Shown: positions 3,930-36,166, counted from the stretch's first letter. The stretch: 64,000 bases of DNA from a virus (IMGVR_UViG_3300028591_000078:174366-238365), one strand, 5' to 3'. Program-made: numbers and translations. Notes: a model not told the origin generated them from the sequence alone.

Positions 3930-4037
3930 TGTTATTCCTCCTCTACATAATTCAAAGATATTAATATAATGTTTTCCCAAATCAAGCCAGTTGACGTTAG
4001 ATAAGAAATCTGGATGGCATTATAGCCATCCAGACTT

Positions 4038-7219: not shown

Positions 7220-10200
7220 TTAGTTATTCATCAAACCATTATCATCAGGAATATTAGCTCTTCTATCATTGTCAAGAACTGTAGAGATATATACTCCATC
7301 CTTATCAAAGTAATCCTTATCTTCATACTTATACAAGAACGGATCTGCATCTACAGACTCCTGATCCATATAGAAGTCAAGAATAACTCCATTATAGATC
7401 ATTTCAGGTTCAATGTCATAGATCATCTCTTCTTCTGTATCACTAATACCATTATAAGTACCATGCATAGCATTGATATGATCTAAGTCTGCTCCTAAAG
7501 TACTGATCATGAAGAGATCATGCTCAGATTTATACTGACTAACATCAATCGGCCAGTCTTCAGGATTAGCAATTCTTACTACATTAAGATTCTGGAGAGA
7601 CTGTACATCTTTGGTTACTTTCATAAGAGAAGAAGATATTCTCATCAGATCACTCTGAAGAACCTTCTTACCATTAATCCATACCAATACAGTCTGAGGA
7701 GATATTCCTATAGGAGCTTCATGTCTTCTGATACGAATATATCCATTACCGAATACTCCTAAATCATTTCCTCTATATCTGAAATAGAATACTATTACAT
7801 AGGGGAGTATGTTAAACATACTACTCAGCTTAAATCTAAGCGAGAGTCTAAGGTTAGAAGGCTTTCTAAAGGACTCTTCTACCATTCTATGGAATAGATC
7901 TATAATATACTTAGGTTCTTCACCGAACCATTCATCTACAGAATCATGAAGCTGCTTCTTTATAAGAGGAGATCTCTCATAAAGTACAACGTCATCAAGT
8001 TCAGCATTATATCTAGATCTAGTAATCTGATAAATATGCTCGATCCAGTCATCAATTCTGTTATTGACAGCTATATATATAAACATCTCTGGCAGATGTT
8101 CTCTAAGAGACCACTCTGTAAGATTAGGTTCCATATAAGCATCATCTACCATCTTATGAAGTATATCAAGTATTCTTGTAGGTTGGCCTTCAAAGTCCTC
8201 TTCTACCCACTGATGAGCCTTTTCTATAAGACCAGGATCAGTTGTATAGTAGATCTTATCAATACCACGCTCAGAATCATCCCAACGCTCAAATACTTGC
8301 TCTTCATATACAAAGTATCTATCAACCCTACCGATAAACATATTAAGTTTATCTATAAGATCTCTATATACTACTTGGTCTTCCATAGGATCCAGGAACA
8401 TTTCAGGCAATCCTTTTCTCAAAGACCATTCGATCTGAGAAGGAGTCTCAAATGCATTATCTACCATCTTATGGAAGAGTGTTAATATAGAATCAGATTC
8501 GTATTCAAAGCACTCATTTACTAAAGCATGAGCTCTAGCCAGTACTTCAGGATCTGTTGTATAGTAAATATCATCTACTCCAAGCTCTGTATCATCCCAA
8601 GACTTATATGCACAGTGCTCGAAGTCCATGATTTCATCGATAGCTTCCATAAATATAGGAAGTTTATCTGATACTCTTATATAATCAAACTGGTCTGCAA
8701 GATTCTTTCTAAGAGCCCACTCTATTAAAGCAGGACCATTGTAAGCATCATCAACCATTCTATGGAATAGTCTAAGTATACCAGCTCTTTCATTACCGAA
8801 GAACTCATTTACGAGATTATGAGCACTCTCTATTACATCTATATCATCAGTATAATAGAACTCATCTGCTGCTACAATCTCATTAGAGTCTATATTTCTG
8901 AATGCATCTGTTGTAGCACTCATCATATTCTTTATTCTAGACATAAACTCATCAAACTTGAACTGGAATGCAAGCTCGATTCTAGAATATCCAAGGAAAG
9001 TAACGGTTTTATTTGTGTAGTCTACTTCCATATTCTTGATCGGAGCACCATATTCATTAGTTATATCAACAGAGTTCTTGTCTTTAAAAAAGTCATCATA
9101 GGGCACAGGTATCTTATACTGCATTACATTAGGATATGTATATACTCTTCTTACAAGGTTGTATGTAGGTTTGAGCATATCCATCTTAATGCCTTCAGGC
9201 AGATAGAATACATCTACATAATCCCCAGCTTCATATTCAAGCTCAAGATATATAGTAGTACCATGTACAGGAGAATCAGGTGTAGGTCTTACTATGCCAA
9301 AGCCAGGATTCATTTTCCTACCATTTACAAATACCATATAATTAGCATGCTCATAGTAATACTTAAAAGTACCACCAAGATAGATTCTATTACTGGTATT
9401 GCTCATGGTATATCTAGCATATTCGAAGTGATTCTTAGTTACAATGGTTACAGTCTTACCATGGTAATATTCATCCTCAACTTTAAGCTTATCACCTTCT
9501 ACTGTAAAGGGTATTGAATAGTATGCATATCCAGAATCCTTAACAGTATATCTATTATTATCATGATCATCTGAGAGTATGGTGATATTAGCAGCAGGTA
9601 AAGTAGACTCTACATAAGGTATATATCCATTCTCATCAATCGGAATATTCTCAAGAACTGTATTCAAGATATTCTTATAGAATATAAACTCGAATACATC
9701 ATCATCTTCAATGAATTGAGGATATGCCTTAAAGTAGAACTGATGAAGTTTATATCTTACTGTATCAGATCTATTATAAAGAAGACCATTCTTGAAGATC
9801 ATTACACTATTATCCATAGGTCTAGCAGTATATCTAACCATATGTACATAGTGCTGATCATCAATCATATCTTTAATCTCTTTACCAGACTTTACTACTA
9901 TATCAGCAATAGTCTCAGGATCCTGCTCTAAGAGCTGGGAATTATATCTAGAGATATAATCAGTAGACTCTACCATATTAGTATAGTCAGACTTCTCAGG
10001 ATCTCTATCAAAGTCAAACTCTTTGTTGAATACTTCAGGAAGTCTTCTAGCCTTATTGAGCTCTTTAGTAGCATAGTCCTGAAGATATTCTGTATTATCT
10101 CCAAGATGATATACATTATCATGCTTCCATTCTACACAATTAGCATAGAATATCTTGTAAGTAGCTACATACTGTATAACTCCAAAGCCCATAGTAATGA

Positions 10201-18594: not shown

Positions 18595-18700
18595 TTTATC
18601 AACTCCTTTCATGACCACTATTATAATATATAATTGAAATCTTCTAGAGTTGCAAAAGACGTCCATGGCTATATTAGCCATGGACAATATATTGTATGTC

Positions 18701-22543: not shown

Positions 22544-23746
22544 ATGGGTATCATATTAAACCCTGGACAAAAATATATAGTACAAGAAGCTAAGAAATGG
22601 TATCGTAGTGCTAATGAACAAGTCTTTCAGATACAAGGACCACCTGGAACTGGAAAGAGTGTTACATTAAATGCTATCATTGATGAGCTTAAATTAAATA
22701 GAGATCGTGTAGCCCCAATGTCATTCATTGGGGCTGCAGCAATTAATATGAGAGTAAAAGGTTTCTATAATGCTAAGACTATTCATTCATGGTTATATTG
22801 GCCTGTAGAAGAAGTCATGTTAGACGAAAATGGTAAACCTATAATAGATTCATACTTTAATAAGCCTAAGAAACATTTAGTCTTTGAACCTAAGCCTTTA
22901 GGAGATATAGATCTAATGGTTATAGATGAGGCTTATGCTACTCCATTATCTCTTAAAAAAGATATAGAATGTAGGAATAAGCTTATATTAGCTGCAGGTG
23001 ATAAAGATCAGTTATCCCCAGTGAAAGATGCTCCAGCATATCTTGTAGATGGTAGAATATACTATCTAGATGAGATAATGAGACAAGAAGAAGGATCTGC
23101 TATCATATATCTATCTCAGAGGATTAAACAAGGATTACCAATACATTCCGGATACTATGGTAATGTATTAGTAATAGAGAATGAAGAGTTGAATGATGAT
23201 ATAATCTCACGAGCAGAAGTAATAATCTGTGGTAGAAATGAAACTAGGGATATGATGAATCATCATATACGACAAGATATTCTAAGAAAGACTTCTAGAG
23301 TACCAGAGTATGGTGAACGAATGGTATGTAGAAAGAATAATTTCCATCTAGAAGTAGATGGAATATCTTTGGCAAATGGATTAATGGGTAAAGTAACTTC
23401 CCATGTAGATCCAAGTACTTTCAATGGTAAGACTTACACAATAGATTTCCAGCCAGATTTAATGGGTAGACCATTTCAAAGAGTACAATGTGATTATAAT
23501 TATCTCTTAGCAAATAATGATCAACGACAAAAATTAAAGTTAGATAGGTTTTCACGAGGAGAGAAGTTTGAGTATGCTTATGCTATTACATCTCATATCT
23601 CTCAAGGAAGTGAATGGGATAAAGGTGTATATCTTGAAGAGCATTTAAATCCTAGCATGGATGCAAGGTTAGCATATGTAGGACTGACTCGTTTCAGAAA
23701 GTCTTGTATCTTTGTCAAGGCTAAACGTAGAAAATACTATATCTAA
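22544..23746 (+). CDS. SF1B helicase (Dda/RecD2-like)
   Basis: GPPGTGKS, IDEA, GDKDQL, IMRQ, YAITSHISQGSEW, YVGLTR. Confidence 0.9.
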   Translation: MGIILNPGQKYIVQEAKKWYRSANEQVFQIQGPPGTGKSVTLNAIIDELKLNRDRVAPMSFIGAAAINMRVKGFYNAKTIHSWLYWPVEEVMLDENGKPIIDSYFNKPKKHLVFEPKPLGDIDLMVIDEAYATPLSLKKDIECRNKLILAAGDKDQLSPVKDAPAYLVDGRIYYLDEIMRQEEGSAIIYLSQRIKQGLPIHSGYYGNVLVIENEELNDDIISRAEVIICGRNETRDMMNHHIRQDILRKTSRVPEYGERMVCRKNNFHLEVDGISLANGLMGKVTSHVDPSTFNGKTYTIDFQPDLMGRPFQRVQCDYNYLLANNDQRQKLKLDRFSRGEKFEYAYAITSHISQGSEWDKGVYLEEHLNPSMDARLAYVGLTRFRKSCIFVKAKRRKYYI

Positions 23747-24350: not shown

Positions 24351-24391
24351 ACCTATATAACTTAAGTGTTTTACACTTAAGTTATATAGGT
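24351..24391. promoter_or_regulatory. Palindromic switch promoter 1 (18-bp arms, loop TTTTA), pointing away from 24420
   Basis: acctatataacttaagtg-tttta-cacttaagttatataggt; minus strand AACT-TAAGTG-TA, plus strand AACT-TAAGTG-TT. Confidence 0.7.
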
Positions 24392-24419
24392 GTAAAATTT
24401 TCGAAAGAAGGTTTGATAT

Positions 24420-25148
24420 ATGTCTTTATGGGTTAATGAAAATGGAGTAATGAAAGAGATTACTGATGTAAATAAAAGCAATGCTATAAATATAGTAAAA
24501 CTTGGAATAGATGATCTTGATGTAACTGCTGATCAGGTAAAAAACTATATTATAAATTGGACTGGTTGGAATAAGGCAGCTTTTAATGATGAATATAAAG
24601 GTGAATTACTAATTCCTATAAAAACGGTTAATATTGGATGTGCCCCTGAGCTTATAGGAATTAATTATACAAGAGAATATTTTTATCAAGATGATATAGA
24701 TGATAGTAATGATTATTCAAGTTATGACCTTTTTATATTATCTAATACAACAACTACGGTAACAAAAACAACTATAGAAAGAATCGGATATAGCTATGTA
24801 GAAAGAGGAGATTTTGGAATCTCTGTAGATCTTAATATATTACGTCAAGGAAAGTATGCTAATCTTAAAGCAGAATATTCTTATAGCATGCCTTTTACAA
24901 CAGAAACTAATCAGGTTTCTACAACACGCAATGGTCGAACTATTACATATAGACCGGTAATGACACCTATGAAGTGCGTTGTAATGCATTTATCTGGATC
25001 AAATCTTATATTCTATCAGTCAGCAAATATTTATTCATATGGCGGAGAACATGAAACTACTTCTGCACTTAGAAATAATCTTAGAGTTCAAGCTAGTTCG
25101 ACTGGTGGTAAAGGTATAGCAATGTACACTATACCTATATTACATTAA
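24420..25148 (+). CDS. Tail-tip/adhesin paralog 1
   Basis: MSLWVNENGVMKEIT; IPIKT...GC.P shared with 31918-32607. Confidence 0.65.
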   Translation: MSLWVNENGVMKEITDVNKSNAINIVKLGIDDLDVTADQVKNYIINWTGWNKAAFNDEYKGELLIPIKTVNIGCAPELIGINYTREYFYQDDIDDSNDYSSYDLFILSNTTTTVTKTTIERIGYSYVERGDFGISVDLNILRQGKYANLKAEYSYSMPFTTETNQVSTTRNGRTITYRPVMTPMKCVVMHLSGSNLIFYQSANIYSYGGEHETTSALRNNLRVQASSTGGKGIAMYTIPILH

Positions 25149-25237
25149 GTAAATATTTCCAATTAATCTATGTATAACTTTATAATACTCTTGTACATAT
25201 AGTCTTAGATGACTATATGTATAGGAGGTTATTATAT

Positions 25238-25510
25238 ATGTCTAATAATAAGCAACCATTTTTATTTGACATAGATTCTGGAAATATTGGGGTAGGAGAA
25301 GATACTCCAATTATACAATTTAAGCATCCACCAAAGATTGTAGTATTATATCTATATGATACAAGAAGTATTTATAATCCTATGAAAGTTATAACTCTTC
25401 ATCAAGATACTTCTAAACACATCTTTGGTACTAACTATGTAGAACTACAAGGAAAATATCTAATATTTAATATGAGTACCGATGGTTTCTCATGGCTAGC
25501 ATTTTTCTAA
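25238..25510 (+). CDS. Small tip-domain-like protein lacking the family N-terminal motif
   Basis: Start MSNNKQ after AGGAGG; FKHPPKIVVL resembles family F.PK motif; ordinary late promoter at 25176-25187. Confidence 0.5.
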   Translation: MSNNKQPFLFDIDSGNIGVGEDTPIIQFKHPPKIVVLYLYDTRSIYNPMKVITLHQDTSKHIFGTNYVELQGKYLIFNMSTDGFSWLAFF

Positions 25511-25514
25511 AACT

Positions 25515-25544
25515 AATCCCTAGGGTATTAATACCCTAGGGATT
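25515..25544. terminator. Bidirectional terminator between convergent genes
   Basis: Perfect palindrome aatccctagggtatt/aataccctagggatt; related CCTAGGG hairpins at 24246-24275 and 26531-26557. Confidence 0.7.
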
Positions 25545-25551
25545 TATTGTT

Positions 25552-25980
25552 TTAATAGAAGATGATTAGTTCACCATCTTCATATTTATAACTACTGCTA
25601 CCATACGTTGTAGAATCGGATCCATTTGAAATTTCAATAGATAATTTTTTAGTTGAATCATTATAGGAATATTTATAATGATATCGTCCAGTACTACCAT
25701 TATTATTATTTATTCCTACAAAGCTACCACTAGACCCTGAACTAGTATCTATGTTTAATCTGTCAACTCCATCACTATTAATACCAGAAGAACTTGGTTC
25801 TGTATATCTATAAAAACACATACAAAATTTTGGAGCGCTAGGAAGATCAACAGTTTTATTTAATGAACCAGTACTGGTTGATGCTTTAAAAGATTTTATT
25901 CCTGTTAATCCAGAACCAGCAGCAAGATATTCATCAGTTAAACTAGTTACAGTACCATCTTCATTAGCATATATTGCCAT
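25552..25980 (-). CDS. Tail-tip/adhesin paralog 2
   Basis: MAIYANEDGTVTSLT; close paralog of 26565-26972. Confidence 0.65.
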   Translation of the reverse strand: MAIYANEDGTVTSLTDEYLAAGSGLTGIKSFKASTSTGSLNKTVDLPSAPKFCMCFYRYTEPSSSGINSDGVDRLNIDTSSGSSGSFVGINNNNGSTGRYHYKYSYNDSTKKLSIEISNGSDSTTYGSSSYKYEDGELIIFY

Positions 25981-26028
25981 AATAAGCCTCCTTATGAATG
26001 TAAATAAATTTTATTCCTATTTATTTTG

Positions 26029-26058
26029 CTAAACTTAAAAGTAAACTTTTAAGTTTAG
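26029..26058. promoter_or_regulatory. Palindromic switch promoter 2 (13-bp arms), pointing away from 25980
   Basis: ctaaacttaaaag-taaa-cttttaagtttag; plus strand AACT-TAAAAG-TA. Confidence 0.7.
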
Positions 26059-26140
26059 TCGAAAATTAAAAATTACATACTCACATGCTGCCTAAGTATA
26101 TGAGTGGTAAAAATTTTTGATCAAATTAATTTTTAAATGA

Positions 26141-26169
26141 CTAAACTTTCAGTTTTACTGAAAGTTTAG
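26141..26169. promoter_or_regulatory. Palindromic switch promoter 3 (12-bp arms), pointing away from 26193
   Basis: ctaaactttcag-tttta-ctgaaagtttag; minus strand AACT-N5-TA (one short of consensus). Confidence 0.55.
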
Positions 26170-26192
26170 GAAAGAAAGAGAAATGCATTTTT

Positions 26193-26525
26193 ATGGCTGT
26201 ATATGCTAATGAAGATGGTACTATTAAAAATCTGACTGATATAACTAATACTGGTTTTACAAAAATTACAATGGGAATTATAGGTTCTAAGGGTACTATA
26301 TCAAAAAATGTTGGTTTTACTATAAAACATTGTTTATTTATTGGAATTAGAGAAAGTGGCGGAGACAGTTATCCTGAAATACAGTCTAATACATTTGCGG
26401 TTGATAGTGGATCTATATATGTAGGAGGATATGATTACGCAAATGTATCATTTTCTGGAACTACTATTTCCTATAGTAATAATGGTAGTAGCAACAGAAA
26501 TGTTGTTTATATAGCATTTGGATAA
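26193..26525 (+). CDS. Tail-tip/adhesin paralog 3
   Basis: MAVYANEDGTIKNLT; VGFTIKHCLF; ends YIAFG. Confidence 0.65.
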   Translation: MAVYANEDGTIKNLTDITNTGFTKITMGIIGSKGTISKNVGFTIKHCLFIGIRESGGDSYPEIQSNTFAVDSGSIYVGGYDYANVSFSGTTISYSNNGSSNRNVVYIAFG

Positions 26526-26564
26526 ATAAAATCCCTAGGGTAAAATACCCTAGGGATATTTATT

Positions 26565-26972
26565 TTAATAAAAGACTATCATTAGACAATCCTCATATTT
26601 TCTATCTTCTGAAGTTTGATTGGTACCAGCGTGTCCATTATTTATACTAATTACTAGCTGTTTTGTTGATTCTATATAATTATAGGTATATAAATAACTG
26701 TTTGGTATACTTCCATTTGAATCAAATTTACCAACCCAATGGCCACTTAGATTAACAGAATATCCTAGATATGAGTGATATTCAAGGCCACCAGCAGTAC
26801 CACTTATAAGTTTATTATATGTATAAAAACATAAAACAAATTTTGGCTTGCTATCAAGCGTTATAGTAGTCGATTTAGTAAAAGCTTTTATTCCTGTTAG
26901 CCCAGAATCAACAGCAAGATATTCACCAGTTAAATCAGATATAGTACCATCTTCATTAGCGTATATAGCCAT
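26565..26972 (-). CDS. Tail-tip/adhesin paralog 4
   Basis: MAIYANEDGTISDLT; paralog of 25552-25980. Confidence 0.65.
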   Translation of the reverse strand: MAIYANEDGTISDLTGEYLAVDSGLTGIKAFTKSTTITLDSKPKFVLCFYTYNKLISGTAGGLEYHSYLGYSVNLSGHWVGKFDSNGSIPNSYLYTYNYIESTKQLVISINNGHAGTNQTSEDRKYEDCLMIVFY

Positions 26973-27020
26973 AGTAAACCTCCTTATGAATGTATTTTAT
27001 TTTTATTCCTATTTATTTTG

Positions 27021-27050
27021 CTAAACTTAAAAGTAAACTTTTAAGTTTAG
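27021..27050. promoter_or_regulatory. Palindromic switch promoter 4, pointing away from 26972
   Basis: Identical to 26029-26058; no gene is served in the direction it currently reads. Confidence 0.7.
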
Positions 27051-27157
27051 TTGCTTGTAAAATTTTACATATGGCCATACTGCCTAAGTATAAGAATGAT
27101 TAAAATTCTATATTTGATTAAATAATAAAGCCGTAGGGAAATTCCCTACGGCTAATT

Positions 27158-27742
27158 TTATTCATCATCGTATACACTAGAAAGTTCTTTTCCAATATCT
27201 GTAACTCCAGCTTCATCATTAGATATCTGCTCTGTTGCTTCCTCATCTTCATTAAATGATTTTGCTGCCCATTCAGATATACCAATATCTTTAGTATCTT
27301 GGACGAATTCATCTTTACGAGTATATACTTTTATAGCATCAAGTACATATTGATCGAGCTTCATAGCATCTATGAGTTTTAATATATTAGGACTCAATCC
27401 ATACTCTGACCCACATTCAAATAAACGCTCTTTAGCAACTCCAAGTATTGCCAGATAATACTCATCTTCAGTATTGAAATCACGTCTATTTAAAGATGCT
27501 ATCTTGATTGCATCCTGTGCTACCTGATCAATCTGTTCGAGAATAAGTGTAAGATAGTCATCTACATCCATAGTGACTTCAGATTTTGCAGACTTCTTTC
27601 TACGAATCTCTAAGATCAACATAGCAAGATTTACCATTACAAGTACTACTACTGCTACTATAAGTAAAACACTAGTAGCCTCATTCTCAGGTGTCATTAC
27701 CTCGGGATGAGATTCTGCACTAAGTAAAATAGTATTCATCAT
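27158..27742 (-). CDS. Single-TM membrane protein
   Basis: Start MMNTILL after AGGAGG; hydrophobic VLLIVAVVVLVMVNLAMLIL then RRKK. Confidence 0.6.
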   Translation of the reverse strand: MMNTILLSAESHPEVMTPENEATSVLLIVAVVVLVMVNLAMLILEIRRKKSAKSEVTMDVDDYLTLILEQIDQVAQDAIKIASLNRRDFNTEDEYYLAILGVAKERLFECGSEYGLSPNILKLIDAMKLDQYVLDAIKVYTRKDEFVQDTKDIGISEWAAKSFNEDEEATEQISNDEAGVTDIGKELSSVYDDE

Positions 27743-27759
27743 CTTAAACCCTCCTCTTA

Positions 27760-29412
27760 TTAGCATACATAGTTATTATTCGTATTATTATTAGCAACAA
27801 TTCCAGACAGTCCTTTACCTCTTAAGAGGTTATTGCTGAAAATGTTGTTCTGGCCATTTACATATATTGTATACTCATCATCTTTGTAGTCTTTAGGATC
27901 ACCATTTCCACGGACTATAGTATTATATGCAAAAATATTGTATTTCGGTACTACATCTGTAGAACCCTGAGCAGCATTCAGCAGAGCGATACCAATCTTG
28001 CAATTAATAAGATGATTATTCTCTATCTTATTATACTGAGTATTAGAGTAGAAAGATGCTACATAGATACCAAGATTACAATCTATGGCTTTAGAGAATA
28101 CTATAGAGTTTGTATAGCAAGGAGTATTGACATCAGATATTATCCAGAAGCCATACTTACAATTCTTAGCAGTACAGTTCTCTATAATATTATTATCTCC
28201 AGTAATCTTGATACCATGTCTACACTCTACAGTAACATTCTCGATTCTATTATTGTTACCATGTACACATATATTACCCCAAGGACGTTCAATAGGACCA
28301 ATAAGTCCCATAGAAGATATACTGAGATTTCTAAGAGTTATTCCAGAACCCTTGATATCAAATACATACTGCTCAGTCTTCTTATCAAACATATCCATAT
28401 GTATAGAGTTGGTAATCTTAACACCAGATTCACCTACTATTTCAACATCGTTTCTATTGATAATAATAGGCTTTCTGGTAGTATATGAATTATATGCTTT
28501 AAGAAGAACTATCTTTCTAGCATTCACATTATTGAGCAGCTTGGCAAATACTTCATGAAGAGAATCATCCTGTCCAACAACGAAGTCTGCACCTGTATAT
28601 TCAGGACCTATAGTATATACCTTAGGTTCGAGTCTTACTATCGGAACTTTAGTATCTCTATATACTAACTGATTACCCTCAAACTGAATAGCTTCGAGTT
28701 TCATCAGCATTTCAGGAGACATAAGTCCAGACTTATAATAGGTTACAAGGTTATTATCAGCCTTACTATCCCAAGATGAAATCTGCTCATCAGATACATG
28801 ACGGATATTCTCATTAGAAGGATGGATATAATTATTAGCATTATAGTCTATAGACTTAAGCTTATCATAGTCCTTTGCTGTAATAAGACCATCGATCTCA
28901 CTAGTAGCAAGAGGATAAGTGAACATCTTTAAAGCTACCCACTTACCAGCAGTGTAACGATATCCTATGCCTTCATCATTTACTGGCACAAACCAGCCCT
29001 CTTCTATATTACTAAGACCAGAATACTTCTGTTTAAATTCTTCAGTATTCTTTACTGCTGGCTGCCATTTCATACCCATAGTAGCAGCTGCAATTTTATT
29101 ATCAGTTTCACTACGAGTATACTTATCAAAGATCTTAGATCTTTCTTCTTTAGTAATATGAATAATAGCGTTATTAGTATGGGATCTAAGCTCAGATCTT
29201 ACAAGGTCTGCTTTAGCCTTAGAGCCCTTAACAGACTCTTTATTATTCCATTCATCAGTCTTCTCTTTAGTAAGATGAATATTCTGATTAGTTATATGAG
29301 CGAGCATTCTCTCATATATTATAGGATCAACAGAGACATTCTCCTGAGTAATATTAGTAGTAGTTTCTTCTGCCTTAGAAGAATTGTCTGATATAATTCC
29401 AATCGGTTTCAA
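27760..29412 (-). CDS. Tail spike/fibre with right-handed beta-helix (pectate-lyase-like) domain
   Basis: TTG start after GGGAGG; HxxNxxIH repeats; GNNNRIENV/GDNNIIENC beta-helix repeats. Confidence 0.7.
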   Translation of the reverse strand: MKPIGIISDNSSKAEETTTNITQENVSVDPIIYERMLAHITNQNIHLTKEKTDEWNNKESVKGSKAKADLVRSELRSHTNNAIIHITKEERSKIFDKYTRSETDNKIAAATMGMKWQPAVKNTEEFKQKYSGLSNIEEGWFVPVNDEGIGYRYTAGKWVALKMFTYPLATSEIDGLITAKDYDKLKSIDYNANNYIHPSNENIRHVSDEQISSWDSKADNNLVTYYKSGLMSPEMLMKLEAIQFEGNQLVYRDTKVPIVRLEPKVYTIGPEYTGADFVVGQDDSLHEVFAKLLNNVNARKIVLLKAYNSYTTRKPIIINRNDVEIVGESGVKITNSIHMDMFDKKTEQYVFDIKGSGITLRNLSISSMGLIGPIERPWGNICVHGNNNRIENVTVECRHGIKITGDNNIIENCTAKNCKYGFWIISDVNTPCYTNSIVFSKAIDCNLGIYVASFYSNTQYNKIENNHLINCKIGIALLNAAQGSTDVVPKYNIFAYNTIVRGNGDPKDYKDDEYTIYVNGQNNIFSNNLLRGKGLSGIVANNNTNNNYVC

Positions 29413-29471
29413 TTGAAGTCCTCCCTTCAAAATTTGGTGGTCGGGATAGATATCTATCCCGACCGATTTAT

Positions 29472-30689
29472 TTAAAGATCTTCAGGATGGATCTCAGCAT
29501 CATAAGAGTATCCATGAGGATGCATTGCAGTTGTAGGAACATGACGCATTGCAGGTCTAAGATCATGATGGTCAAGATCCCATCTGTCCTTAGATATCTG
29601 GTAATATCTCATACACTTAAGAGATTCCAAGCAAGGATCAGGTACAGTAAACAGCGATGCAGATGTACCAGCTTCAAGCTTGATATATTCTATAGTAGCA
29701 TCTGCTTCAGAAGAAGCCATAAGTCCTACATAGTAATTATCTACAGGCTCAGCGATATTGAATGTATACATATTCAGACCACTAGCACCACAGAGCTTAG
29801 TACCATTGGTAGCAGTAAGCAGATAGATATTAGCACTACCAGTAAGCTTAGCAGAAAGTGTATAGTTTCCAGCAGGAAGATGCTCTATGTACTGTACTAT
29901 ATTACCACCAGTAGCAAATCTTACTCTGATAGGATTGGACAGATAGAGTCCAGTATCATCAGCAAATATCTTACAACCATTAGTATACCATCTATCAACA
30001 GTATAACCAGTGATATCATAAGATACTTCTTCTCTCTGATTTATATAGAAAGAAGGATTGATAAGTATATTAGGTTTAGATGTAGACTGATCATAGGTAG
30101 CAGAACCACCTTCAGATTCTGTATTACATCTTACAAGTTCGAGTGCAGGATCAGGATCTACATACATAGTACCATTTTCACCATGCTCGATCTTTACATA
30201 CTGAAGAATTATATCTTCACCAGAGTACACTCTGATAACGAACTCATTGGTTACAGTATTATATACTATTCTAGGACCAATCTGAGTTACCTGTTCCTGA
30301 TAGAAATAGCTATTATTGGTAGCATCTCTAATAAATGCATCCCATGTAGCTTCATATCCAACAGTCTTACAAGAGATAGAAAAGAGACTTCCTACCTCTA
30401 TATTTCTAGTAAGCTTCTGAGATATATTAATATAAGCATCAGAAGTACCACTTACTCTTACTCTGAGACCCTGTTCTACAGGATTTATCTCAAAAGATAC
30501 ATCAGGAGACTGAGAGCTTGTAACAGTCCAGTTATTTACACATGATTTATTGAATTCTGTATAAGAATCTTTACCCGAAGTATTGATCTTAAAGTTTGAA
30601 TTGATCAAAAGATTGGGGTTGCATATAGTATTAGGCGAGACGATTCTGGCATTTCCAGCAATCATGTTGCTTCCAATTGCAAGAGACAT
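29472..30689 (-). CDS. Tail fibre-associated protein with tandem carbohydrate-binding-like domains
   Basis: Two NLLIN.xF.IN(Q) domains; YTVDRW; CMRYYQ. Confidence 0.65.
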   Translation of the reverse strand: MSLAIGSNMIAGNARIVSPNTICNPNLLINSNFKINTSGKDSYTEFNKSCVNNWTVTSSQSPDVSFEINPVEQGLRVRVSGTSDAYINISQKLTRNIEVGSLFSISCKTVGYEATWDAFIRDATNNSYFYQEQVTQIGPRIVYNTVTNEFVIRVYSGEDIILQYVKIEHGENGTMYVDPDPALELVRCNTESEGGSATYDQSTSKPNILINPSFYINQREEVSYDITGYTVDRWYTNGCKIFADDTGLYLSNPIRVRFATGGNIVQYIEHLPAGNYTLSAKLTGSANIYLLTATNGTKLCGASGLNMYTFNIAEPVDNYYVGLMASSEADATIEYIKLEAGTSASLFTVPDPCLESLKCMRYYQISKDRWDLDHHDLRPAMRHVPTTAMHPHGYSYDAEIHPEDL

Positions 30690-30776
30690 ATAGGATTTCC
30701 TCCTTTTGAATTGATATTTAATATAAAGTTAAGAGAAGCAATATTAAACCCTACCCATATGGGTAGGGTTAATGTA

Positions 30777-31811
30777 TTAGGTATGAGTTCCATACAGGTA
30801 TCCAGCAGGACAAGTTGTAGTATCTGCAGCTCTAGTACCAAATCCTATATTTCTTAAACAGCTAAGATAATAGTAGCTATCACCAGTAGAAGTCTTATGA
30901 TTCTCAGTTGTTTCAGCAAGACTACTTGCATAGTTTGCATTTATTGCATTTAATGCAGAGCCACCAGCAGAATCTGATCCGGCATAATTATGTGTATGGG
31001 ACTTAGGAGCATAAGCAGTGTCATGGTTATGAGTAGCAATAGCAAAGTATGAATCAGGTCTATATGCCGCGCTATCTATAGCATGAACCTTTATATTCTG
31101 AACAGAACCATTTATAGTAAACTGTATATTACCATTTATAGAGCTTTCAGCAGCACTTGTAACACCAGTATTAGTGATTGTAGATCCAGTTACATTTATA
31201 CCAGTACCACCAGTATATGCAGTACCAGCAGGCAGAGGTGCAGTTGCAGTATGATCATCACCATATGTATATACAATATTACCGTTTTCGACATTGATAG
31301 ACTTTACATATGTACCCTTGATATTATTACCGCTCTGATCAGCAATAGCCTTATCAGCAGTACCATGAATATTACCAGTAAATCCATACTGCGATCCAAT
31401 GCTACCATCATCACATACATAGAGATGTCCTATAACAGCGCCATCGTGAAAGTATATATGCTTAGCGATATGAGTTTCACCCTGATCATTTATAAGGGCA
31501 ATACCAGTTTCACCAGTATCAGAGATCTTATATCCATTGATTGAATCTGCATTCAGATCAGGCATAGAATCTACAGTAGTTTTCAACCATTCTTTATCTA
31601 CAGATATAGTACCAGTAGATGCGATATAGATTATACCTTCACCGGCCTTAATAGATGATCCACTACCAGGATCTACATAGTCATCATATATATAATATAC
31701 TGTCTTGGTGTTATGATTAATCTCACCAGTACTAATCTTCAAAAGCCATTCGGATTTCTTTATTGGAACAGGCTCATTATTACGATTTTTAAGTCCGTTT
31801 ATTACAGGCAT
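30777..31811 (-). CDS. Tail fibre protein ending without a large receptor domain
   Basis: HNHD/HTH metal motifs, YTGGTGI, C-terminus CPAGYLYGTHT; late promoter at 31842-31853. Confidence 0.7.
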   Translation of the reverse strand: MPVINGLKNRNNEPVPIKKSEWLLKISTGEINHNTKTVYYIYDDYVDPGSGSSIKAGEGIIYIASTGTISVDKEWLKTTVDSMPDLNADSINGYKISDTGETGIALINDQGETHIAKHIYFHDGAVIGHLYVCDDGSIGSQYGFTGNIHGTADKAIADQSGNNIKGTYVKSINVENGNIVYTYGDDHTATAPLPAGTAYTGGTGINVTGSTITNTGVTSAAESSINGNIQFTINGSVQNIKVHAIDSAAYRPDSYFAIATHNHDTAYAPKSHTHNYAGSDSAGGSALNAINANYASSLAETTENHKTSTGDSYYYLSCLRNIGFGTRAADTTTCPAGYLYGTHT

Positions 31812-31885
31812 TGAATACTCCTCCTTTTATAAAGTGTATTTTAATATAAAGTTAATACTCTCCAAATAGCTAGTGATAGAAGAAT

Positions 31886-31913
31886 TACCCATGTACCAAT
31901 TGGTACATGGGTA
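31886..31913. terminator. Terminator after paralog 5
   Basis: Perfect palindrome tacccatgtaccaa/ttggtacatgggta; near copy at 33632-33656. Confidence 0.65.
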
Positions 31914-31917
31914 TATA

Positions 31918-32607
31918 TTAATCATCAAAAGTAAGAATATTGAATACTCTAACTTTATCATTACCTGGATATACAGATATATTTGATTTGGCTTGAGATT
32001 TTGTAACACTACTATTTAACTGAAAAGCTTGTGATATAATAAAATTATTACCACTAAGAGTATATAGCATTACATTACTGTCAACTCCTCTAAATCCTGG
32101 TTTATATGGATATATAATGTATTGTGATTGCCCAGAACCTATTTGAATCGGAGCTCCACTTAATTCGAGCATAGCCCACGAATAACCAGTATTATTGGAA
32201 TAATAACTTTGACCTTGTTTTAACTTATACCATGACTGGGAACTAATAAGTTCATTTTGAAAACTATAAATAGTATTAGTACTTGTGGCTGTCAAACTTG
32301 TATATACTTCATCTGTATAAGTAGTTGCATCAGCATCTGGATCATCACTTCGAAAATTTAAAGCAATATAAGAAGGTGTACATCCAAGATCTATAGTCTT
32401 TATTGGAATTACAAAATTTTCCATATTTGCATATGTTGATGTAGGAGTTTTAGTTCCCCATCTAGGATAATTATTAATTATAGTGCTTCTAAATTCAGCA
32501 GGACTCATATCACAAGTATCGCTAGTAATTTTAAAAGTTTGAAAGAACTTGGCACTTGCTTTACTAAGATCTTTAATACTACCATTCTCATTAACATATA
32601 CTGCCAT
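31918..32607 (-). CDS. Tail-tip/adhesin paralog 5
   Basis: Start MAVYVNENGSIKDL at 32607 after GAGGTG. Confidence 0.65.
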   Translation of the reverse strand: MAVYVNENGSIKDLSKASAKFFQTFKITSDTCDMSPAEFRSTIINNYPRWGTKTPTSTYANMENFVIPIKTIDLGCTPSYIALNFRSDDPDADATTYTDEVYTSLTATSTNTIYSFQNELISSQSWYKLKQGQSYYSNNTGYSWAMLELSGAPIQIGSGQSQYIIYPYKPGFRGVDSNVMLYTLSGNNFIISQAFQLNSSVTKSQAKSNISVYPGNDKVRVFNILTFDD

Positions 32608-32653
32608 ACTAAGGCACCTCACGTTCATTAAATTTTTATTCCTATTTATTTTG

Positions 32654-32683
32654 CTAAACTTAAAAGTAAACTTTTAAGTTTAG
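32654..32683. promoter_or_regulatory. Palindromic switch promoter 5, pointing away from 32607
   Basis: Identical to 26029-26058. Confidence 0.7.
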
Positions 32684-32770
32684 TCGAAAATTAAAAATTA
32701 CATACGGCCATAGCGAGGCAATATATGATCATACCCATTTTAGGGTATGATCTTTGAAATATTTTTCTAT

Positions 32771-32845
32771 AACCTATATAACTTATTGGTTTTACCAATA
32801 AGTTATATAGGTTTAAATCGTGTAAAACACTTAAGTTATATAGGT
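32771..32845. promoter_or_regulatory. Palindromic switch promoter 6 (19-bp arms) plus half-site with flipped loop
   Basis: aacctatataacttattgg-tttta-ccaataagttatataggtt (minus strand AACT-TATTGG-TA), then gtg-taaaa-cacttaagttatataggt. Confidence 0.7.
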
Positions 32846-32872
32846 GTAAAATTTTGAAGGAAGGTTTGATAT

Positions 32873-33625
32873 ATGTCTTTATGGGTTAATGAAAATGGTA
32901 CTATGAAAGAAATTGCTACAGATAAGGATAGTACTGGTGCATATAAATGTACTAGAGATCTTGTATACTGTAAATGGTCATATAACAATGTAGCACGAGA
33001 AGGATATCAAGGATATCAGGGTATTACTGCTGCTACATTAGGATTAACAAAAACTATATTAGTTGATAAAAAGACTGGTTCTGGTCAGAGTGGATCTTAT
33101 TCATATCCATCTCGTGATATAAGTATAAAAGATCTTGATGAAAGTTATAAAAAGACTATTTATACTGGAACATTTCCTCGTAATATGTGTCCAAATGCAG
33201 CAATGGTATCACAAATCAGAACTGATACACTAATCAGTTCTGATACTGGTTTGGTTTTAAAACAATATTTTATTAGTAATACTGCTGAATTTGATAAGTT
33301 TTTAGAAGTTGGTGATTCTTTTAGTAGTATTGTTGGATGCGGATACCCAATTGCAGATGATTATAGTAATAATGCCTCTAAATCTAGTGACCCTAGAAAT
33401 TGGTCGTCAAAAGTTGAACTGAGAGCTATGGGAGAATGCTTAGATGGTATTAATTATAGATTCTATGTAGTACTAGCTAGAACTTCTGACATTACAGAAC
33501 AGGCAGCTTTAACTACAAAACTGTATTCTTATCATAGATTAAATTCTCCAGGATTTGATTATAAATGGATTGGTACTTATTTAATTCAACATATACCATC
33601 ATACACTGAATATACTATAGAATAA
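32873..33625 (+). CDS. Tail-tip/adhesin paralog 6
   Basis: MSLWVNENGTMKEIAT; leader nearly identical to that of 24420. Confidence 0.65.
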   Translation: MSLWVNENGTMKEIATDKDSTGAYKCTRDLVYCKWSYNNVAREGYQGYQGITAATLGLTKTILVDKKTGSGQSGSYSYPSRDISIKDLDESYKKTIYTGTFPRNMCPNAAMVSQIRTDTLISSDTGLVLKQYFISNTAEFDKFLEVGDSFSSIVGCGYPIADDYSNNASKSSDPRNWSSKVELRAMGECLDGINYRFYVVLARTSDITEQAALTTKLYSYHRLNSPGFDYKWIGTYLIQHIPSYTEYTIE

Positions 33626-33688
33626 TATAAAACCCGTGTACCATTGGTACACGGGTATATTATTTTATTGAAAGCTCATTACGTTACC

Positions 33689-34006
33689 TTAATTGTATGC
33701 CTTTGTCTGTAAGTATATGATCTCATAGCCATATTCTTTTGCACAGATGTGTTCTATATTACATCCACGTGCAGTATTATATCCATCTACAAATGCAACG
33801 ACATCTGCATTAGACATAAGCTTGAGACTGTCTGCAAGATACCATAATGGCTTAGCATCTACAGGAGCATCCTTGAAGAAACTATCGATGATTTCTATCT
33901 CTTCTTCTCTATATCTTTCCTTTATTTCCTTGATTGCCTCTTCTCGTGTAGCAAGAATCTGCTCATCTGAGAGACTTCTCATCGGCTGAGAGATAAATAC
34001 CTTCAT
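33689..34006 (-). CDS. DUF4406 / nucleoside deoxyribosyltransferase-fold protein
   Basis: MKVFISQPM...ADVVAFVDGYNTARGCNIEH. Confidence 0.75.
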   Translation of the reverse strand: MKVFISQPMRSLSDEQILATREEAIKEIKERYREEEIEIIDSFFKDAPVDAKPLWYLADSLKLMSNADVVAFVDGYNTARGCNIEHICAKEYGYEIIYLQTKAYN

Positions 34007-34060
34007 AACTATATCATCCTTTCTTTTGAATATATTATATAGTTATTGAGGATTTGCCTT

Positions 34061-34465
34061 TTAATACACTACAAATACACCATACTTTATTGAACTGTCA
34101 CTTTTTACAATTAGTGTTGTTGCATTATTTGTATCTTTTGCTAAGTTAATATATGCTCCACCTCTACCAGCATTAACACTATAGTTCCAACCTATATTTC
34201 TACTAGTAATTTCCTCACCATTATAAGTAGTAAATACCATATCTTCAACTTTTATTATTACTGGAACTCTTACTGTAGTTTCTGTCTCCACATGGAGAGG
34301 TATAAGTACTATATATTTATAATTAGTATAATTAGGTATACTAACAGAATCATCCGTTGTTCTAGTACCAAAATATTTGATACCATTTATTACAAATCCA
34401 TTACTATAATCTGTTTTTTCAGTTAAGTTTTTTAAAGTTCCATTTTCATTTGCATAAATAGCCAT
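34061..34465 (-). CDS. Tail-tip/adhesin paralog 7
   Basis: MAIYANENGTLKNLT...NGFVINGIKYFG. Confidence 0.65.
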   Translation of the reverse strand: MAIYANENGTLKNLTEKTDYSNGFVINGIKYFGTRTTDDSVSIPNYTNYKYIVLIPLHVETETTVRVPVIIKVEDMVFTTYNGEEITSRNIGWNYSVNAGRGGAYINLAKDTNNATTLIVKSDSSIKYGVFVVY

Positions 34466-34480
34466 AAAATCAAAATCCTC

Positions 34481-34512
34481 CTAAACTTTTCAAGTAAACT
34501 TGAAAAGTTTAG
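34481..34512. promoter_or_regulatory. Palindromic switch promoter 7 (14-bp arms), pointing away from 34465
   Basis: ctaaacttttcaag-taaa-cttgaaaagtttag; plus strand AACT-N7-TA (one longer than consensus). Confidence 0.55.
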
Positions 34513-34594
34513 TCATTTAAAAATTAATTTGATCAAAAATTTTGGCTATTCATATACGGCCACAATGTGGTCGTATGTAATTTTTAATTTTTGA

Positions 34595-34624
34595 CTAAAC
34601 TTAAAAGTTTACTTTTAAGTTTAG
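34595..34624. promoter_or_regulatory. Palindromic switch promoter 8, pointing away from 34673
   Basis: ctaaacttaaaag-ttta-cttttaagtttag; minus strand AACT-TAAAAG-TA. Confidence 0.7.
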
Positions 34625-34672
34625 CAAAATAAATAGGAATAAAAATTATTTACGATCATAAGGAGGCTTACT

Positions 34673-35128
34673 ATGGCCGTATATGTTAATGAGAATGGTA
34701 CAGTGCAAACGTTAGCTACAGATGGCGAACCATTAAACATGTCAGTTCAACATTATACAGCAAAATTTATTTATGCATATGCTCAGAGTAATCCATGGCG
34801 TGGATCTGGCTTTGAAGACCAAAGTTTTACTTTACCATTTACTCCAAAAGCTTTTGTTGTAGCTTATGATAATGCAAAAATGCCAGTAGAACACGCTGAC
34901 AGTACAAACAGTCATCGTATTATAACATCAAGAGATATTGCAATAGGTGATAACTCAATAGATATAACTGCCTCTTTTACCACTAACCATAAAAGCGTTT
35001 ATTATCATTATTTTAAAATTAATGGTAATACAGTCACTATACCAAAGACTACATATACTAGTTTTGCTCTTCCTTCGGTAGCATCTCACACTTTCATAAT
35101 AAATTTTGATGTAATCTTTTTCTATTAA
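34673..35128 (+). CDS. Tail-tip/adhesin paralog 8
   Basis: MAVYVNENGTVQTLAT; LPFTPKAFVV. Confidence 0.65.
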   Translation: MAVYVNENGTVQTLATDGEPLNMSVQHYTAKFIYAYAQSNPWRGSGFEDQSFTLPFTPKAFVVAYDNAKMPVEHADSTNSHRIITSRDIAIGDNSIDITASFTTNHKSVYYHYFKINGNTVTIPKTTYTSFALPSVASHTFIINFDVIFFY

Positions 35129-35166
35129 ACAAAATTTACCCACAGGGAAAACCCTGTGGGTATTTA

Positions 35167-35601
35167 TTATGTAAGTCCGAATACAAGATACTTAGGATAA
35201 TAGTTTGCACCATTGTCATGAAACTTAATATTTAATCCAGTAGAATTTATTAGAGTTGCTTTTATTATTAATCCACCTCTACCAGCAGAACCACTATAGG
35301 CCCATCCAACAGATCTAGTAGTTGCTCCATTAAGGCCTCCAGAAGTTTGAAAAGTTAAAGGTGTTTCTAATATAAACATTCCACAAGAAAGTCGCATGCT
35401 TGCGGTAGGATCATCAGGCTGTATAGGAAGTCCTATGATATATTTATATCCTGTATAATTAGCAATATCAATTCCGACTTCAGTACTAGCATGCTCTACA
35501 GTACCAAGATACTTGATACCATTGATTACAAAACCATCACCATAGTCAGTCTTGTTGGTCAGTTCTTTCATTACACTGTTTTCATTAGCATAAATCGCCA
35601 T
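35167..35601 (-). CDS. Tail-tip/adhesin paralog 9
   Basis: Start MAIYANENSVMKELT at 35601; DGFVINGIKYLG. Confidence 0.65.
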   Translation of the reverse strand: MAIYANENSVMKELTNKTDYGDGFVINGIKYLGTVEHASTEVGIDIANYTGYKYIIGLPIQPDDPTASMRLSCGMFILETPLTFQTSGGLNGATTRSVGWAYSGSAGRGGLIIKATLINSTGLNIKFHDNGANYYPKYLVFGLT

Positions 35602-35642
35602 AACTCTTAAATCTCCCATATATAAAATTTTCAGTTTTATGG

Positions 35643-35685
35643 CTTAAGAATTATTACTAAGAACTTCTTAGTAATAATTCTTAAG
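35643..35685 (+). promoter_or_regulatory. Palindromic switch promoter 9 (21-bp arms, 1-nt centre), ON for 35732 and OFF for 35601
   Basis: cttaagaattattactaagaa-C-ttcttagtaataattcttaag; plus AACT-TCTTAG-TA, minus AAGT-TCTTAG-TA. Confidence 0.75.
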
Positions 35686-35731: not shown

Positions 35732-36166
35732 ATGGCAGTATATGCAAATGAAAATGGCAATATTAAGGAATTAACTAGTAAGGTAGACCTTGGTAATGGC
35801 TTTGTTATAAACGGTATAGAATACTTAGGAGAATATCTTCCTTCTCAAAGAGATGGAACTTTTACTTTACCAAAACCATATACAAGCTATAAGTATTTAG
35901 TTGTGTATGATTTCTATGGTAAGAAAAATAATGGAGAAGCTAGCTGGACTAATGTAAAACAGCATTCATGCCTAGAATTTATAGATACATCACTGATTAA
36001 TCCAAGTGATAGATACACATATGATGGATATATGGTTGGAGGGGATGATCCAACTACAAGTAACAAATTATGCTGTATTATTGAATTTGGTAATACTACG
36101 ACATTAAGTATAGACTGTGGAAATTATTATAGTTATAATAGTATAAAATTTTTCGGTATATACTAA
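35732..36166 (+). CDS. Tail-tip/adhesin paralog 10
   Basis: MAVYANENGNIKELT...NGFVINGIEYLG. Confidence 0.65.
   Translation: MAVYANENGNIKELTSKVDLGNGFVINGIEYLGEYLPSQRDGTFTLPKPYTSYKYLVVYDFYGKKNNGEASWTNVKQHSCLEFIDTSLINPSDRYTYDGYMVGGDDPTTSNKLCCIIEFGNTTTLSIDCGNYYSYNSIKFFGIY

Follow-up and report, generated by a model that had tools for sequence, protein, structure and literature searches.

The late genes of phage AR9 are preceded by a very short promoter for its non-virion RNA polymerase (nvRNAP), with the consensus AACA-N6-T(A/G), the last base of which is the start site (Lavysh 2017, PMC5312081; Sokolova 2017, PMC5449584). Changes at positions −11 to −8 of this promoter abolish transcription, a G at −9 abolishes melting, and the +1 base must be a purine, with changes at +1 strongly reducing transcription (PMC5449584). 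Here we analyse a 64-kb stretch of DNA from a rumen jumbo phage (IMGVR_UViG_3300028591_000078:174366-238365; hereafter the window, with coordinates counted from its first base), which forms the 3′ end of a 238,365-bp IMG/VR virus record rated as 97 % complete. Within it, a cluster of ten paralogous genes is accompanied by nine perfect palindromes, of four families designated A to D, in which promoters of the AR9 late type appear to be embedded and whose centres are found inverted in wild relatives.

The resemblance to AR9 extends beyond a single motif. The same short sequence, with the same spacing and start base, is located just 5′ of late genes, the early promoters are of the same motif type, and the β and β′ polymerase genes are likewise split. 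The genome encodes pieces of the multisubunit RNA polymerase subunits β and β′, with matches to PF00562 at C1:364-1236 and to PF00623 at C1:158909-159319 (C1 being here a sequence handle, not the palindrome of that name below). Two features set this phage apart: a T occupies position −8 in about a third of its sites, and no AR9 promoter has been described inside a perfect palindrome with the start or the −9 base at its centre.

Three other kinds of system are relevant. Inversion of a hairpin loop by template switching is an established type of mutation (Monttinen & Loytynoja 2022, PMC8794818; PMC8604942), and the changes seen here are alike in that the exact reverse complement takes the place of the loop, whose length is kept, between unchanged arms (four sites), and in that paralogous palindromes have different inner arms, each perfectly compensated. 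The published cases, however, are mutations in RNA genes or coding DNA, whereas here the bases that define the strand of a promoter are affected and wild populations carry both states at high frequency. Invertons and tail-fibre inversion systems (fimS, Hin, the Bacteroides invertons, the Gin/G segment of Mu and Cin of P1) share with this locus a heritable, reversible choice between genes, which here is predicted, and the coexistence of both orientations in natural populations (8 C and 6 G at the type D palindrome). They differ in that their segments are tens to hundreds of base pairs long and are turned by a serine or tyrosine recombinase, whereas that considered here is 1-3 nucleotides (nt) with arms that abut, for which no recombinase is needed or plausible and the proposed mechanism is a replication error rather than site-specific recombination. 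Finally, the promoter early stem-loop (PeSL) cassettes of T4-type phages are repeated promoter-hairpin modules around small, fast-changing and non-essential-looking open reading frames (ORFs) (Arbiol 2010, PMC2839356; PMC4122927). The repetition seen here is of four identical type A modules, with related B and C modules, before the paralogues, and here too deletions, inversion and transfer between relatives end at the modules. In PeSLs, however, the promoters are early ones of host σ70 type and the stem-loop is a terminator, whereas here a predicted late promoter for the phage polymerase lies inside the palindrome and separate GC-rich hairpins serve for termination. We found no description in the literature searched of a palindromic promoter switch of the kind proposed below.

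Palindromes and their predicted promoters

The nine perfect inverted repeats lie where they had been claimed to lie (Table 1), the arms measuring 13-21 nt and the centres 1-3 nt; they are AT-rich and are positioned 16-60 nt 5′ of the ten paralogous ORFs. Perfect repeats with arms of 13 nt or more number 13 in the 11.6-kb region, against 0 in 200 first-order Markov simulations. In a genome-wide scan for perfect hairpins (arms ≥12 nt) the AT-rich palindrome class was confined to the paralogue cluster, the remaining hairpins being nearly all GC-containing terminators, with a few unrelated AT-rich ones. Family A comprises four identical copies (A1 to A4), B and B′ form a second family, C1 and C2 a third, and D stands on its own. 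Types A and B have a common outer half-site, CTAAACTT, and type D has no half-site of types A to C. The inner arms vary between copies (compare B with B′, and C1 with C2), and each copy is fully self-complementary, as originally described. Hairpin stabilities are −10 kcal/mol for type A, −17.5 for C1, −17.9 for C2 and −17.7 for D, with −12.5 for the terminators.

Candidate promoter motifs of this phage were surveyed genome-wide. The gapped motif most enriched 5′ of genes is AACA-N6-TA (49 observed, 8 expected), placed 19-52 nt before start codons, and in the form AAC(A/T)-N6-TA the motif lies 20-45 nt before about 65 genes, which agrees with the original prediction that the late motif matches that of AR9 and precedes ordinary genes. 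Outside the cluster there are 46 AACA-N6-TA and about 22 AACT-N6-TA sites at the canonical distance; sites of the AACT form also include those of tail-fibre-like genes within the cluster, where the genes for proteins of 405 and 344 amino acids (aa) have ordinary promoters of this form at 30730 and 31853. No enrichment 5′ of genes was seen across the genome for TT in place of TA, for other bases at position 4, or for N5 or N7 spacers. We note that the late promoters come in two flavours, AACAT-N4-[AG]TAA (at 3973, 7177, 11859 and 52723, for example) and AACT[TA]TATA-N-TAA (at 23745, 30730, 31853 and 34044), and since AACT is inactive in AR9 this may point to a relaxed or dual polymerase specificity, or to two temporal classes. 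A separate set of genes is preceded by the early motif TTCAATTATATATTATAATAGTG, found at 18595-18690 in the window and at about 15 other sites in the genome, which equals the AR9 virion-polymerase early consensus AAATATATATTAT-N6-G (PMC5312081).

Eight of the palindromes have AACT in both arms and TA on one strand only, with a spacing of N6 in six of them, N5 at 26141 and N7 at 34481, exactly as had been reported. It is thus the asymmetric centre that decides which strand has the full motif. The combination of T and a purine start after a six-base spacer occurs on one strand of all four type A, both type C and the type D palindromes; in types A and C the predicted start is the first base of the loop, and in type D position −9 is occupied by the central C. 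The D palindrome presents AACT-N6-TA towards the gene at 35732 and AAGT on its opposite strand, and with G instead of C at the centre an identical promoter faces the gene at 35601. Scored with a weight matrix trained on 60 ordinary promoters outside the cluster, the type A sites reach 16.6 bits, D 12.2, and C1 and C2 10.2, the ordinary promoters having a median of 14.7 and only 39 sites genome-wide reaching 14. Other promoter types were considered and set aside, since a σ70-like spacer sequence (TTACAT...TATATG) is not enriched elsewhere and the early motif is absent from the cluster. A role of the palindromes as intrinsic terminators was rejected as well: no U run follows them, and every gene has a GC-rich terminator of its own.

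The promoters at all eight sites of types A to C point away from the adjacent paralogue, in keeping with the original prediction, which took this to mean that the genes are switched between ON and OFF states. That part is not supported, because away is not equivalent to OFF: three of the pairs are divergent, and there the partner paralogue, 145-205 nt distant, is what the promoter points at, and, since promoters directed away from one gene mostly aim at its partner, the arrangement would be a toggle rather than an ON/OFF switch. The further statement that the promoters at 24351 and 27021 serve no gene fits the position of the next co-oriented gene, which is more than 2.6 kb off at both sites. 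Transcripts from 27021 and 32654 would soon encounter a hairpin that has a run of T.

The spacer between B′ and A4 contains a GC-rich hairpin (34553-34578) whose stem shows compensatory changes between lineages (CGGCCAC/GTGGTCG against CTCCCAC/GTGGGAG), and a second GC-rich spacer hairpin, at 32727-32752, likewise has its T run on a single strand. These two, each placed between palindrome promoters that face one another, are probably one-way terminators which would decide which far promoter reaches its gene. The half-palindrome at 32822-32845 looks like the relic of a flipped C1 copy that was later overlaid by the new palindrome C2.

Inversion of the palindrome centres in wild relatives

Near-identical DNA is contained in gut metagenomes of sheep, cattle and goats. 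Relatives were obtained only by protein look-ups in ENA and Logan assemblies, and the paralogue cluster was recovered from 13 other samples, by several assemblers. A comparison of related genomes had been suggested as a check, and its outcome was positive: exact centre inversions with unchanged arms are present at four of the nine sites, together with gene-facing type A palindromes elsewhere. Differences at the centres are always an exact reverse complement with length kept. Between the window and L005, none of 288 arm positions differs, against 98 of 1449 (6.8 %) in the adjoining 80-nt flanks.

At the type D palindrome the central base (35664) is C in the window and seven further records and G in the remaining six, and within one near-identical lineage (0-2 differences over ~1480 nt) each state is found on both flanking single-nucleotide polymorphism (SNP) haplotypes. 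At A4 (34609-10) six samples, including that of the window, have TT, and L022 and L023 have AA, which faces the 151-aa gene, the remainder of 1620 nt being nearly identical. The AA of the window at A1 (26043-4) is replaced by TT in L034, which within 300 nt is otherwise identical to five other records, and the TTT of B (26154-6) is AAA, facing the 110-aa gene, in seven samples of a related lineage. Type A palindromes that precede paralogues in two other contexts (L013 and L028-30) face their gene. These comparisons bear out that, in nature, the centres become inverted against backgrounds that are otherwise identical, with the arms frozen. Within the near-identical lineage, flips are seen at three of the nine promoter palindromes and at none of 24 other hairpins (Fisher p = 0.015). 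Hairpin stability was considered as the driver of flip frequency and rejected, since in this same lineage the weak type A hairpin flips and C1, C2 and the terminators stay put, C1 and C2 being as strong as D.

Mixed states may also occur within single samples. The data available for the source sample were Logan k=31 contigs, and mixtures were inferred from the ends of contigs. All but three of the contig ends in the source sample are accounted for by a pure-genome graph at k=31; the exceptions are 24380, and 35672 paired with a start at 35656, and these are exactly the ends expected from graphs with mixed TTT/AAA (C1) and C/G (D) centres; the contig that ends at 35672 has one mismatch, and there is one C>G place in the run summary. 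Logan contigs of two other samples (L025 and L026) pass unbroken through D, so the palindrome alone does not break contigs. In run ERR2027900 the megahit assembly has C (L005) and the Logan assembly has G (L017). Both the source sample and this run are therefore suggestive of mixed centre states.

Proposed mechanism and alternatives

We propose that the palindromes are flippable late promoters that act as a recombinase-free toggle among the paralogues, a reading which we would put at a probability of roughly 0.55. Each palindrome would be a modular late promoter served by the multisubunit RNA polymerase that the phage encodes, in which the only asymmetric bases are critical for the promoter, being the predicted start in types A to C and the essential −9 C in type D, and inversion of the 1-3 nt centre would transfer the complete promoter to the opposite strand. 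Inversions of this kind are a known outcome of template switching in replication, in which the nascent strand folds back on a hairpin and copies itself. The flip would then re-route late transcription between the two genes flanking the palindrome, giving a heritable and reversible toggle beside the tail-fibre genes, for example between the two 144-aa genes at D, or between the 134-aa and 151-aa genes at A4. Under the promoter rules established for AR9 each flip should turn the promoter round, so that D and A4 would swap the favoured member of their divergent pairs. The modules would also resemble PeSLs in being the points at which gene cassettes are deleted, inverted or transferred. The original suggestion that no dedicated recombinase is involved remains sound, since a segment of 1-3 nt is beyond any recombinase and none is encoded in the cluster. 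A broader proposal, that the locus represents a third and recombinase-free class of phase variation, in which high-frequency hairpin-templated flips toggle divergent and possibly receptor-binding paralogues, is put forward tentatively, at somewhat less than even odds.

Several observations weigh against a toggle. The effect of the flips on expression is something we infer from sequence. The palindromes have AACT and not AACA, and such a change at −8 kills AR9 promoters in vitro; the use of AACT in this phage rests on the approximately 22 other AACT sites at the right distance. The spacings of B (N5) and B′ (N7) deviate from six bases. Five of the nine palindromes (C1, C2, A2, A3 and B′) are never flipped in the consensus sequences compared, the counts of unflipped samples being 7/7 for C1, 10/10 for A3, 6/6 for C2 and 13/13 for B′. 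The four-gamete pattern at D could stem from recombination rather than from repeated flips, and part of what looks like within-sample mixture could be produced by fold-back chimeras in the libraries. Terminator centres are also inverted between more distant lineages, at 27141 (A/T), 33644 (T/A) and 36184 (G/C), so inversion is a general mutation in this phage; the terminator centre at 35148-35151 is nearly complementary (AAAA against CTTT), and the complementary base occurs as a polymorphism at all four hairpins with a single-base centre seen in the stretch, one of which is D. In none of the genomes compared does a promoter face the 242-aa or the 250-aa gene, yet neither gene shows decay, the ratio of non-synonymous to synonymous polymorphism (pN/pS) being 0.3-0.8; genes that are never faced by a promoter are therefore still under some purifying selection, and other routes of expression must exist. 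Finally, no function was established for any paralogue by the sequence, profile or fold searches.

The most probable alternative is that the modules are PeSL-like promoter/hairpin cassettes, that the centre inversions are neutral by-products of hairpin-templated replication errors, and that expression of the genes does not depend on the centre state but draws on weak initiation at the TT side, on read-through or on a far promoter, with the palindrome serving as a hairpin in the 5′-untranslated region and as a recombination site. It would account for the flips of terminator loops between lineages, for the five palindromes that do not flip, and for the intact genes that lack a facing promoter; the cassette deletions and inversions that end at modules, as in PeSLs (PMC2839356), also fit, and transcripts from far promoters would include the near palindrome as a perfect hairpin. 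We nevertheless regard it as less likely than the toggle. Neutrality does not explain why three independent families set AACT so that the −1/+1 junction meets the boundary of arm and loop while a fourth centres the −9 C, nor why, within the near-identical lineage, flips are limited to promoter palindromes, and the states of D, near 50:50 across samples, also argue against it.

An improbable reading is that a dimeric phage regulator, repressing or activating the paralogue promoters, uses the palindromes as its operators, the dyads then reflecting protein binding rather than hairpin chemistry. Perfect dyads at promoters, the half-site CTAAACTT common to A and B, and invariant arms amid diverging flanks are all what an operator would show; the inner arms, however, differ by type and still remain perfectly complementary, D shares no half-site with the other types, arms of 13-21 nt exceed the usual half-sites, the genes beside the cluster yielded no candidate regulator, and the exact centre inversions would be left unexplained. 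Less probable still is that the differences are artefacts of assembly or sequencing: de Bruijn graphs are indeed disturbed by palindromes, most of the present sites coincide with breaks in Logan contigs and fold-back chimeras can give a complementary centre beside one flank, but both states were obtained whatever the assembler (megahit at k87, k127 and k141, scaffolded assemblies and Logan) in 13 samples, k >43 spans the centre plus unique flanks, the pure-genome k=31 graph is unbranched at D and the L025 and L026 Logan contigs run through it, and the flips at A1, A4 and B are in palindromes shorter than k.

Paralogues and neighbouring genes

The ten ORFs behind the palindromes are paralogous, as had been stated, with the common N-terminus M-[AS]-x-[YW]-x-N-E-[ND]-G, and the likeness among them is limited to this N-terminal peptide of ~15 residues. 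They evolve faster than their neighbours, with pN/pS of 0.25-0.8 or more against 0.1-0.25. None has a Pfam or PHROG match, an Atlas feature search gave nothing significant, and an exhaustive profile search found only 12 relatives among 1.84 billion representative proteins. The fold model was poor (predicted local distance difference test score, pLDDT, 58.6), and a fold search of the PDB returned nothing significant, the best look-alikes being tail or baseplate proteins of phages, namely gp144 of phage K, a baseplate protein of phi812 and gp9 of T4, with E-values of 0.06 or higher throughout. The description of the paralogues as tail-tip proteins is thus plausible but unproven.

Three larger late genes lie within the cluster, of which the 405-aa product has a tail-fibre match in PHROG and the 550-aa product a weak match to a β-helix (NosD) family. 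The cluster also contains a gene related to DUF4406 and nucleoside 2-deoxyribosyltransferases (33689-34006), which accompanies the 134-aa paralogue in L013, L014, L025 and L026. No similarity was found between the cluster region and a phage database, the exact type A palindrome pattern was found neither in IMG/VR nor in metagenome contigs of the Joint Genome Institute, and a search of IMG/VR with a tail-fibre protein gave no relatives.

Table 1. Palindromes, associated hairpins and genes of the paralogue cluster (window coordinates; for palindromes the strand is that of the predicted promoter)
Feature	Coordinates	Strand	Arms (nt)	Centre	Score (bits)	Remarks
Palindrome C1	24351-24391	−	19	TTT	10.2	AACT-N6-TA; predicted start ~24372, leftward, away from 242-aa paralogue
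Palindrome A1	26029-26058	+	14	AA	16.6	Predicted start ~26043, towards 110-aa and away from 142-aa gene
Palindrome B	26141-26169	−	13	TTT		Weak site (N5, or N6 with A at −1), leftward
Palindrome A2	27021-27050	+	14	AA	16.6	Predicted start ~27035, into terminator 27129-27153; away from 135-aa gene
Palindrome A3	32654-32683	+	14	AA	16.6	Predicted start ~32668; meets hairpin 32727-32752 and T run, then 250-aa gene
Palindrome C2	32771-32813	−	20	TTT	10.2	Predicted start ~32793, leftward to 229-aa gene
Palindrome B′	34481-34512	+	15	AA		Sole match N7; 3′ arm abuts ribosome-binding site of 134-aa gene
Palindrome A4	34595-34624	−	14	TT	16.6	Predicted start ~34610, leftward to 134-aa gene
Palindrome D	35643-35685	+	21	C (35664)	12.2	Predicted start ~35673, faces 35732 gene
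Half-palindrome	32822-32845	+		AAA		Right half of C1 copied, centre inverted; directly 5′ of 250-aa gene
GC-rich hairpin	34553-34578	+				B′-A4 spacer; T run on plus strand only
Paralogue, 242 aa	24420-25148	+				MSLWVNENG subtype; pN/pS 0.33-0.57
Paralogue, 142 aa	25552-25980	−				
Paralogue, 110 aa	26193-26525	+				
Paralogue, 135 aa	26565-26972	−				
Paralogue, 229 aa	31918-32607	−				Alternative start 32628
Paralogue, 250 aa	32873-33625	+				MSLWVNENG subtype
Paralogue, 134 aa	34061-34465	−				
Paralogue, 151 aa	34673-35128	+				
Paralogue, 144 aa	35167-35601	−				Left of type D pair; alternative start 35619
Paralogue, 144 aa	35732-36166	+				Right of type D pair
Three larger late genes (550, 405, 344 aa)	27760-31811	−				Within cluster

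Cassette organization

Each paralogue forms a monocistronic unit that consists of a palindrome, a leader, the ORF and a common bidirectional terminator, and relatives differ by the loss, fusion or inversion of such units, with break points at the modules. Joints of 25866-26879 and of 25514-26530 are present in runs X2 and X4, and in L028 the region of a 90-aa gene is joined straight to a type A module. In L025, which is ~7 % diverged (8458-9871 corresponds to 31925-35581 of the window), a segment with 134/105-aa genes is inverted with its break points at palindrome modules, the 229-, 250- and 151-aa paralogues are absent, and a different 145-aa paralogue stands where the type D pair has its left gene.

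A unit comprising a terminator, a type A palindrome, a 134-aa paralogue and the DUF4406 gene is found in L013 (3759-5491; 25 % GC), where it is 75-87 % identical to window positions 34512-33600 and adjoins genes of temperate-phage character, encoding a helix-turn-helix repressor-like protein, Sipho_Gp157 and AAA_24, that have σ70-like promoters. Either the cassette was transferred to a temperate phage or the L013 contig is a chimera. We also note two ENA contigs (L045:2739-3320 and L049:876-1844) in which 229/349-aa phage genes are joined to bacterial-looking genes (VEG, SpoVG and ribosomal protein S17), which is either chimeric assembly or a hint of a host among the Bacillota.

Implications

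If the flips do redirect transcription, this would be a promoter switch without an enzyme of its own, made of just a palindrome and an ordinary mode of replication error, and since nothing more is needed such a switch would be missed by standard tools: inverton finders seek longer segments, and variant callers would list isolated transversions. A function would also be provided for perfect palindromes around minimal promoters, and the locus would constitute a direct test of the dependence of an AR9-type polymerase on its −9 and +1 bases. Even if the inversions are neutral, the locus is a clean natural case of mutation hot spots at hairpin centres, exceeding the per-site density of SNPs by about two orders of magnitude. 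If the proposed toggle is real, a lytic jumbo phage would be hedging its bets among alternative late proteins, and a clonal population of such phages would gain combinatorial, heritable and reversible diversity.

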